Positions 1,991 to 31,482 of a stretch of 64,000 nt of DNA are shown here, piece by piece. The stretch comes from an uncultured Actinomycetota bacterium. GTDB taxonomy: Bacteria; Actinomycetota; Actinomycetes; Streptosporangiales; Streptosporangiaceae. Location: positions 4,581 to 68,580 of the forward strand of contig CAVRCV010000012.1 of the NCBI GenBank assembly GCA_963719705.1, given 5' to 3'. The notes beneath the pieces are model-generated. The model made no database searches. It saw nothing but the letters and a program-made list of their open reading frames with translations, and had not been told where the DNA came from. Position 1 is the first letter of the stretch. Every line of letters starts with the position of its first letter. The position numbers and the translations under genes are program-made.

Positions 1991-2929
1991 GTGATCCGTC
2001 ATCGAGTCCTGGCCGCGTCGCTGGCCTGCGTCACAGTCTGCGCGACCGCCGCGGCAACCGTCGCACTGGCCAGCGGGGCGCAGGGCGCTGCCGCGGCACC
2101 CCGCGCCAGGCACGCGGCCGGGCTGCGGGTGCCCCCGCTGTCCGGAGCCGCACTGGCTACCGCGGCCGGGCACTGCGCGGCCTGGGCCGCCAACGCCGGC
2201 TTTGCGGACAACGGCTACCTGGGCGGCTCGCTCACGACCGCGGTGGCGGTGGCGCTGGCCGAGTCCGGCTGCGACCCGTCCGCCTGCTTCGACAACACCA
2301 CGAAGGAGAACTGCACGCCGCCCGGGCCGCCGGCCGACTCGGTGGACCGGGGCGCCTGGCAGCTGAACAGCAAGGTGCCGGGAGCCGCCTCGAATAAGTG
2401 CGCGTTCAACGGCCCCTGCTCGGCTACCGCCGCCTACCGGGTGGAGTCGCAGGACGGCACGTTCTTCGCCGCCTGGGTCAGGTACTCGACCGACGACTAC
2501 GCCGGGTTCCTGCCCGCCGCGCAGTCGGCCGTCAACGCGCTCCGGGCGGGCGCGGTGACCAGCGGGGTGATCGGGTCCTGTCTCGGGTATCCCGGCGACC
2601 GGGCGAACGCGAAGGTGATCCTGGCGAACTGCGGCAGCGCGGCGGCCGACCAGATCTGGCGGGTCAGCGGCGCCGCCATCCGGACCCGCAAGGGCCTGTG
2701 CCTGACCGCGGCATCCCGCCATCCCGGTGCGGTGCTGCTCGGCCGGTGCGGCACCGGCTCGCGCCACCTCCGGCCGACCCAGCGCTGGCTGGCGCACGGT
2801 GACGACTCGCTGTACAGCCCCGGCGCACGGCGCTGCCTGACCGACCCGCGCGGCGCGGACAAGCCGGGCGCGGTGATCGGCCTGACCCGCTGCAACGGAG
2901 CCAGGAATCAGACCTGGTGGCTGCCCTGA
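1991..2929 (+). CDS. Secreted lysozyme-like/lytic-transglycosylase domain protein with C-terminal ricin-type beta-trefoil lectin
   Basis: N-terminal hydrophobic signal (ASLACVTVCATAAATVALASGAQGA). AESGCD...DRGAWQLNSK is a transglycosylase-like motif. The C-terminus has repeated (Q.W)-type lectin motifs (DQIWRV, TQRWLA, NQTWWLP) with paired Cys. Confidence 0.65.
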   Translation: MIRHRVLAASLACVTVCATAAATVALASGAQGAAAAPRARHAAGLRVPPLSGAALATAAGHCAAWAANAGFADNGYLGGSLTTAVAVALAESGCDPSACFDNTTKENCTPPGPPADSVDRGAWQLNSKVPGAASNKCAFNGPCSATAAYRVESQDGTFFAAWVRYSTDDYAGFLPAAQSAVNALRAGAVTSGVIGSCLGYPGDRANAKVILANCGSAAADQIWRVSGAAIRTRKGLCLTAASRHPGAVLLGRCGTGSRHLRPTQRWLAHGDDSLYSPGARRCLTDPRGADKPGAVIGLTRCNGARNQTWWLP

Positions 2930-2981
2930 TCCGGCAGGGGCTGCCGGGCCGGGTGGCGGCGAACGGTCTATTGTCGCGGGT

Positions 2982-6741: not shown

Positions 6742-8238
6742 CTACTGGTTGACCGGGAAACCGAGGCTGACACCGCCATGGCTGGGATCCAGCCAGCGCG
6801 AGGTGACCGCCTTGCCGCGGGTGTAGAAGTGCACGCCCTCGGTACCGTGCACGTGCGTGTCGCCGAACAGCGAGGCCTTCCAGCCGCCAAAGGAGTAGTA
6901 GGCCATCGGGACCGGGATCGGCACGTTGACGCCCACCATCCCGACCTCGACCTCGCGGGTGAACCGCCGGGCCGCTCCCCCGTCGTTGGTGAAGATCGCG
7001 GTGCCGTTGCCGTACGGGCTGCCGCTCACCACCGACAGCGCCTCGTCGTAGCTGTCTGCCCGGACCACGCACAGCACCGGCCCGAAGATCTCGTCGGCGT
7101 AGCAGCGCATCGCCGGGGTGACCCGGTCCAGCACGCTGGGGCCGAGCCAGAACCCGTCCGGCGAGCCGCCGGTGACCGGGTGCCCGCGGCCGTCCACCGC
7201 GAGCACCGCGCCCTCGGCAACACCGGAGTCCAGGTAGGACGCGACCTTGTCCCGGTGCGCGCGGGTGACCAGCGGCCCCATCTCCGCCGCCTCGTCGTCG
7301 CCGGGCCCGACCCGCAGCCTGGCCACCCGGTCGGCGATCCGGCTGACCAGATCGTCGCCCGCCTGGCCCACCGCCACCACGACCGAGATCGCCATGCACC
7401 GCTCCCCCGCCGAGCCGAACCCGGCCGATACCGCCGCGTCGGCGGCCAGGTCGAGGTCGGCGTCGGGCAGCACCACCATGTGGTTCTTCGCTCCGCCCAG
7501 GGCCTGCACCCGCTTTCCGGCCGCGGTGCCGGACTCCCATACGTAACGGGCCACCGGGGTGGATCCGACGAAGCTGACCGCGCGCACGTCCGGGTGCGCC
7601 AGCAGGGCGTCGACCGCCTCCTTCGCCCCGTGCACCACGTTGAACACCCCGTCCGGCAGCCCCGCCTCGGCCAGCAGGCCGGCCAGCAGCACCGAGGCGG
7701 ACGGGTCCTTCTCCGACGGCTTGAGCACGAACGTGTTGCCGCAGGCAATCGCGATCGGGAACATCCACATCGGCACCATGGCCGGGAAGTTGAACGGGGT
7801 GATGCCGGCCACCACGCCGAGCGGCTGGCGGATCGAGTAGGCGTCCACCCCGGTGGAGACGTTCTCCGAGTACCCGCCCTTGATCAGGTGCGGAATGCCG
7901 CAGGCGAACTCGACTACCTCAAGCCCGCGGGCCAGCTCGCCCGCCGCGTCCGCGGCCACCTTGCCGTGCTCGGCGCTGATCAGCGCGGCCAGCTCGGCCT
8001 GGTGGCTGCGGAGCAGCTCGCGGAACGCGAACAGGACGTTCACCCGGCGGGCCAGTGAGGTATCCCGCCAGGCCCCGAACGCGGCAGCGGCGGCCTGCAC
8101 GGCCAGGTCCACCTCCGCCGCGGTGGCAAAGTCCACCGAGCCGGTGACCTGCCCGGTGGCCGGGTTGTAGAGGTCGCCGCGCCGGGCCGCGTCGCCGGCC
8201 CACGGCTTGCCGCCGATCCAGTGCGTACAGTGCTTCAT
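6742..8238 (-). CDS. mmsA: CoA-acylating methylmalonate/malonate-semialdehyde dehydrogenase
   Basis: 498-aa intact ORF. MKHCTHWIGGKPW..., FNFPAMVPMWMFPIAIACGNTFVLKPSEKDP and GERCMAIS (catalytic Cys) follow MmsA/IolA-type aldehyde dehydrogenase order. Confidence 0.85.
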   Translation of the reverse strand: MKHCTHWIGGKPWAGDAARRGDLYNPATGQVTGSVDFATAAEVDLAVQAAAAAFGAWRDTSLARRVNVLFAFRELLRSHQAELAALISAEHGKVAADAAGELARGLEVVEFACGIPHLIKGGYSENVSTGVDAYSIRQPLGVVAGITPFNFPAMVPMWMFPIAIACGNTFVLKPSEKDPSASVLLAGLLAEAGLPDGVFNVVHGAKEAVDALLAHPDVRAVSFVGSTPVARYVWESGTAAGKRVQALGGAKNHMVVLPDADLDLAADAAVSAGFGSAGERCMAISVVVAVGQAGDDLVSRIADRVARLRVGPGDDEAAEMGPLVTRAHRDKVASYLDSGVAEGAVLAVDGRGHPVTGGSPDGFWLGPSVLDRVTPAMRCYADEIFGPVLCVVRADSYDEALSVVSGSPYGNGTAIFTNDGGAARRFTREVEVGMVGVNVPIPVPMAYYSFGGWKASLFGDTHVHGTEGVHFYTRGKAVTSRWLDPSHGGVSLGFPVNQ

Positions 8239-8398
8239 CCGCCCTCCTCTGCCTGCCCCGAGCTTATCCGGGGCCGCCAGCCCGGCCCGTTCCAGCAGGC
8301 CAGGATGCCCGCGAGCGGAGGCGCGAGCCGCCAGCGCCTGAATCAGCCGGTAGCACGGTGCAGGGCAGCACCGGCTAGCGTCCCGCTAACATCGGCGT

Positions 8399-26460: not shown

Positions 26461-29388
26461 CTACCGGGCCGTGACCACGTTGACGATGCGGCCGGGGACC
26501 ACCACCATCCGCTCGACCGGCCCGGCCTGGCCGACGTACCGGGCGAAGTCGGGGTGCTCCTTCAGGATCTGGCTGGTCAGCTCCTCACCGGCATCCGGCG
26601 GCGTCTCGATCCGGAACCGGACCTTGCCGTCCACCCGGACCGGAACGATGACCATCGGCGCCGCCCCGGCCAGGTCGCCGGGCTCGGGGAAGGGCGCGTA
26701 GCAGACCGATCCGTCGTGGCCCAGCCGGGCCCACAGCTCCTCGGCGATGTGCGGCGCCAGCGGCGCGACCATCAGCACCAGCGGCTCGGCCAGCGCCCTG
26801 GGCAGCGCGCCGCGGGCCGCGACGATCCGCTGGGCCAGGTTGTTCAGCTCCTGCAGCCGGGCGACCGCGATGTTGAACCGCAGCCCGCACGAACAGCTCG
26901 CGGACCGAGCTCACCGTGTCGTGCAGCTGCCGGGCGGTGGCGGCGTCCAGCTCGCCGTCGTCCACGATCAGCGCGCCGGTCTGCTCGTCGATCAGGTTCC
27001 GCCACAGCCGCTGCAGGAACCGGTAGACCCCCACCACGTCGTCGGTCTGCCAGGGCCGCTCGGCCTCCATCGGGCCGATCGCCATCTCGTACATCCGCAG
27101 CGTGTCGGCCCCGTAGGCGGCGTACATCTCGTCCGGGCTTATCCCGTTCTTCAGGCTCTTGCCCATCTTGCCGATCCGCCGGGTGACCGGCTCGCCCTGC
27201 CAGCACGGACCGCCGTCGGCCCCGGCGGCGACCTCGGCGGCCGGCACGTAGAAGCCGCGGGCGTCGGTGAACGCGTCGGCCTGGATCATGCCCTGGTTGA
27301 ACAGCCGCCGGAACGGCTCGGCGGTCGACACGTGACCCAGGTCGTACAGCACCATGTGCCAGAACCTCGAGTACAGCAGGTGCAGCACCGCGTGCTCGGC
27401 CCCGCCCACGTACAGGTCCACGCCGCCCTCGCCGGGCGGCGCCCCGGCGGGCACCATCCAGTACCGCTCGATCACCGGGTCGACCAGCGCCTGGTCGTTG
27501 CGCGGATCCAGGTAGCGCAGGTAGTACCAGCACGATCCGGCCCACTGCGGCATCACGTTCAGCTCGCGCCGGTAGCTGCGCGGCCCGTCGCCCAGGTCCA
27601 GCTCGACCGTGGCCCAGTCCCGCGCCCTGGCCAGCGGCGGCACCGGCTCGCCAGCGTCTAGGTCCTCGCCGTCCGGCTCTGGGGCCCGGAACTCGGTCAG
27701 CTCGGGCAGGGTGACCGGCAGCTGGTCATCGGGCAGCGCGACCGGCAGCCCGGCCTCGTCATACACGATCGGGAACGGCTCGCCCCAGTACCGCTGCCGG
27801 GAGAACAGCCAGTCCCGCAGCCTGCAGGTCCGCTGCCGCGAACCCGTGCCCGGACTCCTCCAGCCAGCCGGTGACGGTCGCGATCGCCGCCTGCACGCTG
27901 GCCCCGGCCAGGTCGACTCCGGTGCCGGACCAGCCGGAGTAGGCGCCATCGCCGCTCAGCACCTCGGTCACGGGCAGCCCGAACTCGCGCGCGAATGCCA
28001 GGTCCCGCTCGTCGTGCGCGGGCACCGCCATGATCGCCCCGGTGCCGTAGTCCATCAGCACGTAGTCGGCCAGGAACACCGGCATCGCGCGCGCCGGTCA
28101 CCGGGTTGGTCACGTGCGAGCCGGTGAACACACCGGTCACCGGGACCGGCCGGCCCGGTGCCGCTCCGCCGCCGCCGCCGCGTGCTCCCGGTAGGCCGCC
28201 ACCGCGGCGGCCGGGCCTGCGCCGGACCGACGCTGGGCGACCGCCGCGAACTGCCACGCCTGCGGGGTGCCGTCCGGCCAGTCGTCCGCGATCAGCCCGT
28301 CGGCCTGCGGGTGCTCGGGGGCCAGGACCAGGAAGGTGGCACCGGGCAGGGTGTCCGGGCGGGTGGTGAACACCGTGACCAGGCCGCCGGGGCGCCCGGC
28401 GCCTGGCCCGGCCTGGCCAGCATCGAACCGGATAGCGGCGCCGTCGCTGATCCCGATCCAGTTGCGCTGCATCACCTTGATCGGCTCCGGCCAGTCCAGC
28501 GTGTCCAGCCCGGCCACCAGCCGCTCGGCGTAGGCGGAGATCCGCAGCATCCACTGCCGCAGCGGCCGCCGGAATACCGGGAAGTTCCCCACGTCGCTGC
28601 GGCCCTCGGCGGTGACCTCCTCGTTTGCCAGCACCGTGCCCAGGCCGGGGCACCAGTTGACCGGCTCCTGCGAGATGTAGGCCAGGCGGTACTCGTTCAC
28701 CACCTTCCGGCGGGTCAGCTCGTCCAGCTCAGCCCACGGCAGGCCGCCGGGGTTCGCCTGGCCGGACGGCTGCCGCGTCCCGGCCTCGAACTCGGCGACC
28801 AGCTCGGCGACCGGCCTGGCCCGGCCCTGGACGGGGTCGAACCAGCTGCCGAACAGCCGCAGGAAGATCCACTGGGTCCAGCGGTAGTAGCCGGGGTCGG
28901 TGGTCACGATCTCCCGTCTGGTGTCGTGGCCCAGGCCCAGCCAGGCGCAGCTGGGCGCGCATGATCTCGATGTTCCTGGCGGTGGTGACGGCCGGGTGCT
29001 GCCCGGTGCTGATCGCGTACTGCTCGGCCGGCAGGCCGAACGCGTCGTAGCCGTACGGATGCAGCACCGCGTGCCCGGTCATCCGCAGGAACCGGGCGTA
29101 CACGTCGGTGCCGACGTAGCCGACCGCGTGGCCGACGTGCAGTCCGGCCCCGCTCGGGTAGGCGAACATGTCCAGCATGTAGAACTTCGGCCGGCCGGCC
29201 ATCCGGTCGAAGCCCGCCGATAGCGGCCCGACCGGGTTCGGCGCCCGAAAGGTCCCCTCCGCTTCCCACCGGTCCTGCCACGCCAGCTCGATCCGGTTGG
29301 CCAGGGCCGCGTTATACCGAAACGGGGGCTCGGCGCTCGTGCCGTCGCCTGATACTGCAACCTGGTCGGCGCTGACCTGCTCGCTCAT
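26461..29388 (-). pseudogene. leuS: Leucyl-tRNA synthetase, at least 5 frame breaks as assembled
   Basis: Six collinear ORF pieces (28729..29421, 28137..28907, 27697..28653, 27759..28085, 26585..27949, 26461..26778). Motifs: PSGAGLHVGHAVGY (HIGH), [39 protein letters not shown] (KMSKS). Breaks at ~28950, ~28145, ~28088, ~27840, ~26890. ATG 29388 is preceded by GGAGGA. Confidence 0.85.
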
Positions 29389-29418
29389 CGGATCCTCCAA
29401 CGGTAGATAAATGGGAAA

Positions 29419-29441
29419 CAAAAAAGCCCCGCTGAGGGGCT
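29419..29441 (-). terminator. Intrinsic terminator inside the leuS 5' leader
   Basis: Minus strand reads AGCCCC-UCAGC-GGGGCU followed by UUUUUU. It ends 30 nt before the leuS ATG. No upstream minus-strand gene exists for it to terminate. Confidence 0.5.
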
Positions 29442-29442
29442 G

Positions 29443-29480
29443 CCGCGCTGACGAGTCCTGCCGGGGTGCGGTCAGCGCGG
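29443..29480 (-). promoter_or_regulatory. Perfect 10-bp hairpin overlapping the leader-ORF stop codon (attenuator element candidate)
   Basis: CCGCGCUGAC (18-nt loop) GUCAGCGCGG on the minus strand. The 5' arm can alternatively pair with UCAGCG in the downstream terminator. Confidence 0.4.
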
Positions 29481-29513
29481 CCCGGTAAGGAGGAGGTTGC
29501 GGCGAACGGTCAT
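29472..29513 (-). CDS. Candidate 13-aa leuS leader peptide MTVRRNLLLTGPR
   Basis: AUG ACC GUU CGC CGC AAC CUC CUC CUU ACC GGG CCG CGC UGA. Three consecutive Leu codons. A TATCCT -10-like hexamer ends 6 nt upstream of the AUG (possible leaderless start). Confidence 0.35.
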   Translation of the reverse strand: MTVRRNLLLTGPR

Positions 29514-29621
29514 GCCCTCAGGATACCGGCCTGGGCCGGCCGGGAAAAGCGCAAACCACTGGACACGAAAGGCCGGGACATGAAATGCCGGGACGCGAAT
29601 CACCAGGCAATACTGGGCAGC

Positions 29622-31101
29622 ATGGACCTGGACTTCGCGACCGCATCCGAGCTGACGCAGGCACTGCGGGACAAGGCCGTTTCCAGCCGGGAGCTGCTGG
29701 CACACCTGACACGCCGGATCGAGCGGCACAACCAGCGGATCAACGCGATCGTGGCGCTGGATCTGGACCGGGCCGAGGCGGCCGCGGCGGCCGCCGACCA
29801 GGCCACCGCCAAGGGCCGGGCGGATGGGGCGATGCCGCCGCTGCACGGGCTGCCGATGACGGTCAAGGACGCATGGGAGACCGAGGGCCTGGTCACCACG
29901 TCGGGCGCGCCCGAGCTGGCAGATCACGTGCCGGGCAGCGACGCGCTGGCGGTGGCCCGGCTGAAGGACGCCGGGGCGATCGTCATCGGCAAGACGAACA
30001 CCCCGCTGTACGCCGGCGACGTGCAGACCTTCAACGACGTGTACGGGGTCACGAACAACCCGTGGAACCTCACCCGCACCGCGGGCGGGTCCTCCGGCGG
30101 GGCCGCGGCCGCGCTCGCGGCCGGCCTCACCCCGCTGGAGCTGGGCAGCGACATCGGCGGCTCGATCCGGAACCCGGCCCACTACAACGGGGTCTACGGG
30201 CTGAAGCCATCCTGGGGCATCGTGCCGACCCGCGGCCACATCCCCGGCCCGCCGGGCAGCCTGGTCGAGGCCGATGTCGGCACCGGCGGCCCGCTGGCCC
30301 GCAGCGTCGCCGACCTGGAGCTGGCACTTGGCGTGGTCGCCGGGCCGCTGCCCGAGGACGCGGCCGCCTGGCGGCTGGAGCTCAGGGCCGGCCCGCCGGT
30401 CAGCGACGTGTCAGGGCTGCGGGTGGCCACGGTCTTCGGCGCGGGCGACGGGCTGCTGCCGCTGGCCGGCGACGTGCGGGCCGGGCTGGAAGCCTTCGCC
30501 GGCCGGCTGGCCAGTGCCGGTGCGTCGGTGGAACCGGTGCCGCTGCCGGTGCCGCTGGCCGACGGGCTGCGTACCTGGGCGCAGCTGGTACTGCCGATCA
30601 TCGGGGTCGGCCTGCCCGACCATGAGTACGACGACTTCCTCCGGCTGGAGGCGCCGGGCCAGGCGGCGGCCAGCCCGGAGAATCCGCTGCTGCTCGCCGC
30701 GCAGTCCTTCGTCAGCCGGTACCGGACCTGGATGACCGCGCACGCGGTCCGGCAGCACCAGCGCGCCGCCTGGGCCGGGCTGCTGGAGCGCTATGACGTC
30801 GTGCTCGCCCCGGTGATGCCGACGGCGGCGTTCCCGCACGACTTCACCTCGATGCCGGACCGGCAGCAGGACATTGACGGCGTCCCGGTCCCGGCGCTGG
30901 TCACGCTGGCCTGGTGCGGCGCGATCGGAATCCGTGCTGCTGCCGGTGGTGACCCTGCCGGCCGGGCCGACTCCGGCCGGGCTGCCGACCGGGATCCAGG
31001 TCATCGGTCCCTTCCTGGGCGATCTGCGCCTGCTCCGGATCGCCGGGCTGATCGATGCGGCAGCCGGGCCCGGCTTCACGGCACCACCAGGGAGCGGCTA
31101 G
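29622..31101 (+). pseudogene. Amidase (amidase-signature family), one frame break
   Basis: MDLDFATASELTQALRDKAVSSRELL..., GLPMTVKD, GGSSGGAAAALAAG..LELGSDIGGSIRNPA (AS signature). After LAWCGAIG (~30925) the adjacent frame continues SVLLPVVTLPAGPTPAGLPTGIQVIGPF... to a stop at 31101. Alternative start ATG 29580. Confidence 0.75.
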
Positions 31102-31104
31102 AGA

Positions 31105-31482
31105 TCAGAACCGCTCGACCAGATGTGCCCGGCCGGCTGACAGCTCGTAGGGCTGCGGCCAGAAATCGGTGACCCTGGCGATCAGGCCATCCCCGTCGAA
31201 GTCGAAGAAGGCCAGGCCGGGATAGCTCTCGCCCGGCTCCGACATCTCGATCCAGCTCGCCGCCGACCGCTGGCCGGCCACGATTCGCTGGACCGCCAGG
31301 TGCCACTCGCCGGGGAAGCCCTCGGCGTTGAAGCGCAGGTACGCCGCCTTGCCGCGGACCCGCTCCCTGGTCTGCGGCGCCTCGTACACCATGTCGTCGG
31401 CGAGCAGGTGCCCGAACGCCGCCCAGTCCCTCGCCTCCGCCGCCGCCCAGTAGGCAGCCACTAGCTGCTGCGTATCGGTCAT
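31105..31482 (-). CDS. SnoaL-like / NTF2-fold protein
   Basis: 125 aa. VAAYWAAAEARDWAAFGHLLADDMVYEAPQTRERV.G..AYLRFN is the typical SnoaL_2 pattern. Confidence 0.7.
   Translation of the reverse strand: MTDTQQLVAAYWAAAEARDWAAFGHLLADDMVYEAPQTRERVRGKAAYLRFNAEGFPGEWHLAVQRIVAGQRSAASWIEMSEPGESYPGLAFFDFDGDGLIARVTDFWPQPYELSAGRAHLVERF

Follow-up and report, generated by a model that had tools for sequence, protein, structure and literature searches.

Attenuators ahead of leuS, the gene for leucine--tRNA ligase, have been reported twice in Streptomyces. Seliverstov et al. (2005; PMC1262725) predicted that leuS of S. avermitilis and of S. coelicolor is preceded by a classical attenuator, and they describe the Streptomyces elements with antiterminator and terminator hairpins. 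Droste et al. (2021; PMC8079986), using transcription start site mapping and RNA sequencing (RNA-seq) in S. lividans, report a leaderless leader gene, leuL2, with the product MRAVRLLLSEPR*, followed by a hairpin and a uridine stretch and located upstream of leuS. An attenuator at leuS is hence not new, because it was predicted in 2005 and had RNA-seq support in 2021. The element considered here lies in the leuS leader of an uncultured actinomycete, on a stretch of 64,000 nucleotides (nt) from contig CAVRCV010000012.1 (assembly GCA_963719705.1), the whole of which we call the window. An earlier interpretation of that DNA by a model, made from its letters and referred to as the sequence-only reading, had proposed a leucine-sensing attenuator at this place. 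That interpretation was right in kind, but it was wrong in an alternative RNA fold taken up below and in supposing that such control had not been described for actinobacterial leuS, which both papers report in Streptomyces.

The window element is almost certainly a member of the actinobacterial family of leuS leader-peptide attenuators represented by S. lividans leuL2, judging from a comparison of sequences. It occupies the 233-nt intergenic gap between an amidase gene and leuS, which holds on the minus strand all of the elements that had been listed for it. Coordinates refer to minus-strand reading unless stated, and elements were read directly from the window sequence. ORF stands for open reading frame and SD for Shine-Dalgarno sequence.

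29525-29520, minus strand: TATCCT, the -10-like hexamer of the putative leader promoter, by direct reading; 6 nt follow and then the leader ATG.
29513..29472, minus strand: leuL-type leader ORF of 13 codons plus TGA, product MTVRRNLLLTGPR*, with ATG at 29513 and TGA at 29474-29472.
29495-29487, minus strand: the candidate regulatory Leu codons CTC CTC CTT, by direct reading; rare codons.
29481-29442, minus strand: hairpin A, CCGCGCUGAC / GUCAGCGCGG, with an 11-bp stem and an 18-nt loop, by reading and folding.
29441-29420, minus strand: terminator T, AGCCCC-UCAGC-GGGGCU plus U-run, with the stem at 29441-29425 and a 5-nt loop, by mechanical scan and folding.
29398-29393 and 29388-29386, minus strand: leuS SD GGAGGA and leuS start ATG, by direct reading.
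26461..29388, minus strand: leuS, leucine--tRNA ligase, the presumed regulated gene, split over at least three reading frames in the assembly.
From ATG 29622, plus strand: amidase (Pfam PF01425, E=2.7e-83).

Streptomyces leuL2 and the window element have most of this anatomy in common. Both stand directly upstream of leuS, with a short ORF, reported as leaderless in S. lividans and predicted to be so in the window, that has three consecutive Leu codons and a P-R-stop end. Both also have a GCCGCGCUGA/UCAGCGCGGC hairpin with the stop codon in its 5' arm, and directly after it a CCCCUC/GAGGGG terminator with a U-run. The differences are the host, which here is an uncultured actinomycete, the peptide, which has 13 residues ending in T-G-P-R in the window and 12 ending in S-E-P-R in Streptomyces, and the loop of hairpin A, which is a simple 18 nt in the window and contains a nested stem in the Streptomyces-like version. 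A link to the published case comes from metagenome contigs L179 and L195, whose leader product, MRAVRLLLSEPR*, is that of S. lividans leuL2 residue for residue, and which by reading and folding have the same layout of -10 hexamer, hairpin A and abutting terminator T. L179 scores 85.6 bits with the covariance model of the family, over the full length of the model.

As to the details, TATCCT, the 13-codon ORF, the three Leu codons, GGAGGA and the leuS ATG are all where the sequence-only reading had placed them, and the 6 nt between TATCCT and the ATG would suit a leaderless transcript. The hairpin described there as 10 bp exists with its 18-nt loop and stop codon, though its stem is 11 bp, since G29481 also pairs with C29442. 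The terminator is likewise present and is recovered by the mechanical scan, but its U-run had been overcounted: the first of the six U that follow GGGGC (29425-29420) is already counted in the stem, and downstream of GGGGCU there are five U, a G, and then UUU. That no minus-strand gene upstream could use this terminator is confirmed, because the neighbor is the plus-strand amidase. The spacer of 30 nt between leader and leuS, which carries GGAGGA, was correctly described as AU-rich, with 47% G+C versus 72% for the window, but this is not a conserved property, as relatives have other spacers; they do have an equivalent ATGAGC start with a GGAG-type SD ahead of it. The leader stop codon is within the 5' arm of hairpin A, and the stem begins exactly 5 nt past the last Leu codon.

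Taken by themselves, the features in the window are statistically weak. The mechanical scan finds 1 terminator-like site versus 0.7 in shuffles, and the fold z-score is -1.7. It is the conservation of the module that argues the element is not there by chance, and to see how far this conservation extends, two sets of relatives are available. The genome set consists of 80 loci from species-representative actinobacterial genomes, fetched by the first 147 LeuS residues only. In most of them a module is found about 90-200 nt upstream of leuS in the same order: a TAnnnT hexamer 6-7 nt before GTG or ATG, a short ORF, the stop-codon hairpin, and the terminator with its U-run. The ORF has 10-14 codons in the family, with 2-4 Leu codons, and 58 of the 80 loci have an ORF that fits M-x(2-6)-(L/F)LL-x-x-P-(R/C)*. 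The 5' arm of hairpin A in relatives is GCCGYGCUGA, including the stop codon, followed by the CCCCUC/GAGGGG terminator and U-run. A covariance model built from 51 non-redundant leaders matches 61/80 loci, so that the mini-ORF, its Leu run and both hairpins, whose conservation in related leuS upstream regions had been suggested as a check, are indeed conserved. The model misses the other 19, namely every one of the 12 Acidimicrobiia-type loci and 7 unclassified metagenome-assembled genomes (MAGs). The window leader scores 78.6 bits over the full model length.

The metagenome set was collected with the DNA pattern CTNCTNCTNNNNGAGCCGCGCTGA, which has nothing from leuS in it and returned 120 contigs. 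A strict filter on the TCAGCGYGG 3' arm passes 20 matches, 19 of which have enough flank to test, and leuS is just downstream on the same strand in 19/19. The leader module is linked exclusively to leuS. A looser structural filter gave 143 family members among 201 sequences, two of which proved to be false positives; in 141 of the 143, the start codon comes 6 or 7 nt after the end of a TAnnnT hexamer. What had been read in the window, a putatively leaderless Leu-codon ORF with two hairpins and a terminator in the leuS leader, matches the comparative data across Actinomycetes. The family is far broader than the two Streptomyces reports suggest, with members from Geodermatophilaceae, Streptosporangiaceae-like and Actinomadura genomes, as well as from many lineages in soil metagenomes; a leuL-type leader was not found in the Acidimicrobiia loci sampled. 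The family appears to have no curated Rfam model, and it is of some value to annotators to recognize that this intergenic region holds a leuL-type leader.

Irregular members also exist. In L027 (1366-1488) and L040 (1364-1487), two codons past the Leu run there is a UAG stop, which just precedes hairpin A, and a recognizable terminator is missing downstream; L049 has the same early UAG with the terminator kept. L103 has two identical leader copies on opposite strands, at 2829-2953 (minus) and 8232-8356 (plus), and L036 and L037 are two scaffolds of one Geodermatophilus sabuli assembly with identical leuS regions; these duplicates are probably assembly duplications. In the Klenkia loci L035, L051, L055 and L065, an ATG is found right after the terminator U-run, about 54 nt before the leuS start, in frame and with no stop between, and the terminator 3' arm GAGGGG is spaced from it as an SD would be. 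The extra ATG is probably coincidental, given that the conserved GGAG-ATGAGC start is found downstream of it.

The RNA structure was examined for covariation. RNAalifold on 51 sequences gives exactly two helices, A and T. In a model-based alignment of 101 distinct sequences tested against 500 shuffles, 97.5% of the cells are paired versus 92.4% in shuffles (0/500 reach it), and the cells changed on both sides number 79 where 17.5 are expected (again 0/500). Slid controls of the helix alignment are 32-56% paired. Helix A is 99% paired across the 101 sequences, and one of its pairs is C-G in 78 and U-A in 23, in addition to A-U and G-U variants. The last sense codon of the ORF is CGC (Arg), UGC (Cys) or CAC (His) and switches along with the partner that it pairs with in hairpin A, and because the residue changes in this way, the position is conserved as RNA and not as peptide. 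Helix T is 95% paired, with both-side changes in 4 of its 7 pairs. From the Leu codons to hairpin A there are 5 nt in 100/100 sequences, including 39/39 of the genome set, and from hairpin A to the terminator core there are 2 nt in 82/100, while the loop of hairpin A ranges from 10 to 39 nt in the same 100.

Three further regularities were seen. The stem GCCGYGCUGA/UCAGCRCGGC (alignment A2 columns 50-58 and 113-124) hardly varies between orders, which is more conservation than base pairing needs. The leader stop is always UGA, and the next nucleotide is C, U or G (87, 32 and 24 of 143), never A. In Geodermatophilaceae (L011, L014, L018, L035, L043, L044 and others, at about 1352-1490), GUGACCGGCGG at the 5' end of the ORF can pair with CCGCCGGUAC, located about 10 nt past the U-run, and in Klenkia and Modestobacter Leaf380 a GGUGG/CCACC pairing replaces GGCGG/CCGCC in this long-range helix, at -17 to -20 kcal/mol. 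This may be a clade-specific helix that would form only in read-through mRNA. Permuting partners gives -12.75 for own versus -11.16 for cross pairings, a comparison confounded by relatedness. It was rejected as a feature of the family, because neither the window nor its closest relatives nor the Streptomyces-like contigs have it.

The question for the ORF is whether ribosomes read it. In 101 leaders, the Leu positions keep Leu while their third bases vary. The first position is CTG in 56, CTC in 29 and CTT in 7, the middle one is mostly CTC, and the third is CTT in 81, CTC in 17 and CTG in 2. That is far from the local usage, as the leuS coding sequences at the family loci have 87% CTG, 9% CTC and 1.1% CTT, and the coding regions of the window have CTG 96, CTC 7, CTA 2 and CTT 1. 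The distance from start codon to Leu run is 6, 9, 12, 15, 18 or 21 nt in 100/100 unique sequences, never out of frame, and the residues ahead of the run vary freely in sequence and length. Because Leu is kept with varying third bases, the codon choice is not that of the genome and indels preserve the frame, the ORF is evidently translated. The rare Leu codons are presumably read by tRNA-Leu(GAG), and the choice of them points to sensing of Leu-tRNA at the level of translation. One other use of the run, frameshifting under Leu starvation at CUU-A past the UGA, was considered and dropped, the nucleotide after CUU not being conserved.

We take Leu-responsive control of leuS to be likely, and the complete reading, a leuL2-type leader-peptide attenuator working by the following events, to be probable. 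Transcription would start within 1 nt of the leader ATG, and the 13-codon ORF, having no 5' untranslated region, would be translated by a 70S ribosome. In free RNA, A and T would both fold, and RNA polymerase would stop at the U-run (about nt 90-95), leaving little leuS mRNA. A ribosome awaiting Leu-tRNA at the last of CUC CUC CUU would end at the base of hairpin A and leave it closed, and a ribosome that is not starved would go on to the UGA in the 5' arm and unzip it, so that the open or closed state of A would report the supply of Leu-tRNA. Read-through into leuS would be expected to rise when charged tRNA-Leu is scarce. Constrained folds agree with the two states of A, which is closed with the ribosome at the third Leu codon and fully open with the ribosome at the stop codon. 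We infer the direction of regulation and T as the regulated step. For the final step, the two ends of A are side by side and T begins 2 nt after A, and so a stalled ribosome would be held against the 5' arm of T and the RNA exit of the polymerase; once A was unzipped, about 28 nt of flexible RNA would separate ribosome and T, and T would fold. From this geometry we tentatively propose that T is sterically hindered by a ribosome that has stalled at the foot of closed A.

Several observations weigh against this account. T has a probability of 0.97-0.98 in all modeled ribosome positions in the window, and it is in the minimum-energy fold of the Streptomyces-like, Geodermatophilus and Actinomadura leaders. 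No third helix beyond A and T was found by RNAalifold on 51 sequences or by mutual information with average product correction (APC) on 100 sequences, nor was an antiterminator sharing nucleotides with T detected in about 100 diverse members. Apart from its own stem, the T 3' arm has one recurrent partner, the Leu run, and that pairing is about 10 kcal/mol worse. The step from stalling to read-through, by steric hindrance or otherwise, is accordingly a tentative one. As to the data, the pattern used to retrieve the metagenome contigs fixes the Leu-to-stem spacing, which makes the genome set the one that is unbiased for that spacing, and the model that gave the window leader its 78.6 bits has the window in its training alignment. 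Last, the leuS frame is broken at several places in the assembly, and should the breaks be genuine, there may be no functional gene left for the module to regulate. The Leu run as a partner of T was tried as a mechanism, with T forced open in folding, and rejected for having the wrong logic, in that the stalled ribosome would cover the site.

The rival that survives best, although we consider it unlikely, is that T is constitutive and leaky and the output of Leu sensing is post-transcriptional. In one version, the pyrimidine-rich Leu run (CCUCCUCCUU, anti-SD-like) would mask the leuS SD until a stalled ribosome covers the run, and in another, a ribosome stalled at the 5' end would stabilize the mRNA. 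There is something to the first version, as the minimum-energy fold of the window does pair CUCCUC with the GGAGGA of the leuS SD, L002 has an 8-bp match of GCAUCCUC with GAGGAUGC, and purine-rich segments that pair elsewhere do so preferentially with the Leu run. But any CUC/CUU run complements any GGAG, and coevolution of leader and SD is unsupported because duplex energies with the SD of the same locus and with those of other loci are equal (-14.5 versus -14.2 kcal/mol). Post-transcriptional control also leaves the conserved spacing of A and T unexplained.

That the leader is an intact regulatory relic ahead of a decaying leuS pseudogene is a quite improbable reading. It has in its favor a leuS frame broken in several places, with three fragments in different frames. 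Each fragment, however, still has its best match, and a strong one, to TIGR00396 leuS_bact (120, 170 and 260 bits), and leuS is normally essential. The amidase C-terminus (window 30900-31172, plus strand) also reads as frame-shifted, and the breaks in both genes together fit an assembly rich in indels better than they fit gene decay. As for the leader, its match to the family model is full-length. The leuS DNA is 76% identical to that of L001, which is too divergent to place the frameshifts in or outside homopolymers; the N-terminus of the window LeuS is 82% identical to that of a palsa-soil MAG.

A classical arrangement, in which the A 5' arm CGCUGA re-pairs with UCAGCG in the loop and 3' arm of T to form an antiterminator that excludes T, is what the sequence-only reading had offered as mutually exclusive folds, and we find it very improbable. 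The 6-nt complementarity exists in the window, and PMC1262725 describes Streptomyces leuS elements with antiterminator and terminator hairpins. The alternative fold, however, is at -25.9 kcal/mol versus -37.3 for A plus T, which is 11.4 kcal/mol worse, with T staying at about 0.97, and the A 3' arm, a perfect partner for the A 5' arm, is transcribed first. The terminator loops of relatives (CUGCGU, UCGUAAGG and AUGCGU, for example) have no UCAGCG, and neither RNAalifold nor the mutual-information scan finds a CGCUGA/UCAGCG helix. It is just as improbable that the element senses no Leu at all, being a micropeptide transcript or a fixed promoter-proximal terminator that sets a low level of leuS, for while the peptide does end in a conserved P-R or P-C, that last residue tracks its pairing partner at the level of RNA, the Leu run with its strongly non-random rare codons is the only part conserved as amino acids, the residues before it are free, and the element is strictly linked to leuS.

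Coming back to leader-peptide attenuation of the leuL2 type, the term classical attenuator used in print is not apt, as about 100 members have yielded no antiterminator while the spacings at the base of A are invariant. We suggest, as a speculation, that the whole leuS leader family may work without an antiterminator, with hairpin A serving as a bridge that parks the starved ribosome against the terminator. In this geometry, the base of A would be at the mRNA entrance of the stalled ribosome, with the stem at +12 from the first P-site nucleotide. If true, it would explain the invariant junction spacings, the variable A loop and the lack of a competing fold, and with such a placement of the ribosome, translation would be coupled to intrinsic termination in a manner of its own.

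Some other observations on the surroundings can be recorded. A 255-amino-acid minus-strand ORF at 29472..30239 has the same frame and stop as the mini-ORF. It was rejected as a gene, as it is antisense to the Pfam-confirmed amidase, and it is a typical spurious ORF of high-GC DNA that an automatic annotator could call, thereby hiding the leader. Between the amidase start and the leader promoter (window 29560-29600, minus-strand reading), GTCCCGGC is present twice, 13 nt apart (GCGTCCCGGCATTTCATGTCCCGGCC), and could be an operator for divergent promoters or a chance repeat. No tRNA genes were found within the window. A scan of 29200-29800 against Rfam at E up to 10 gave no family above threshold. 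The small RNA (sRNA) P13 was rejected as an identity for the element, its sub-threshold match of 24.5 bits versus a gathering score of 70 being accounted for by two generic hairpins.

The remaining comparison is with regulatory leaders of other kinds. The T-box and the Rfam families Leu_leader (RF00512) and Leu/phe leader (RF01743) likewise combine an RNA leader with a terminator on aminoacyl-tRNA synthetase or Leu-pathway genes. No match to either Rfam family, or to the T-box with its specifier loop, T-box sequence and stem I, is present in 29200-29800 at E up to 10. A preprint (bioRxiv 10.1101/834739) reports mycobacterial leaderless polycysteine small ORFs that are amino-acid-responsive attenuators and the first cistron of their transcript. 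Like the window leader, they are short actinobacterial ORFs rich in the codons of one amino acid, and they differ from it in the amino acid and in the downstream genes.

With the classical E. coli trp, leu and pheST attenuators, the window element shares a leader peptide rich in cognate codons and an intrinsic terminator between ORF and gene. It differs from them in that the regulatory codons are upstream of segment 1 and not inside it, in that the 3' arm of hairpin A cannot pair with the 5' arm of T, leaving no 2:3 antiterminator, and in that the leader is apparently leaderless. A ribosome acting with no antiterminator does have a precedent in the coupling-type attenuation of E. coli pyrBI and pyrE, where the ribosome physically blocks the terminator hairpin. 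The leader ORF of pyrBI extends across its terminator, with UTP-dependent polymerase pausing as the signal. We claim no membership of that class for the window element, and the resemblance would at most be a functional analogy in the closeness of the ribosome to the polymerase. The window ORF stops 30 nt before T, and such closeness would come about only by way of hairpin A as the bridge.

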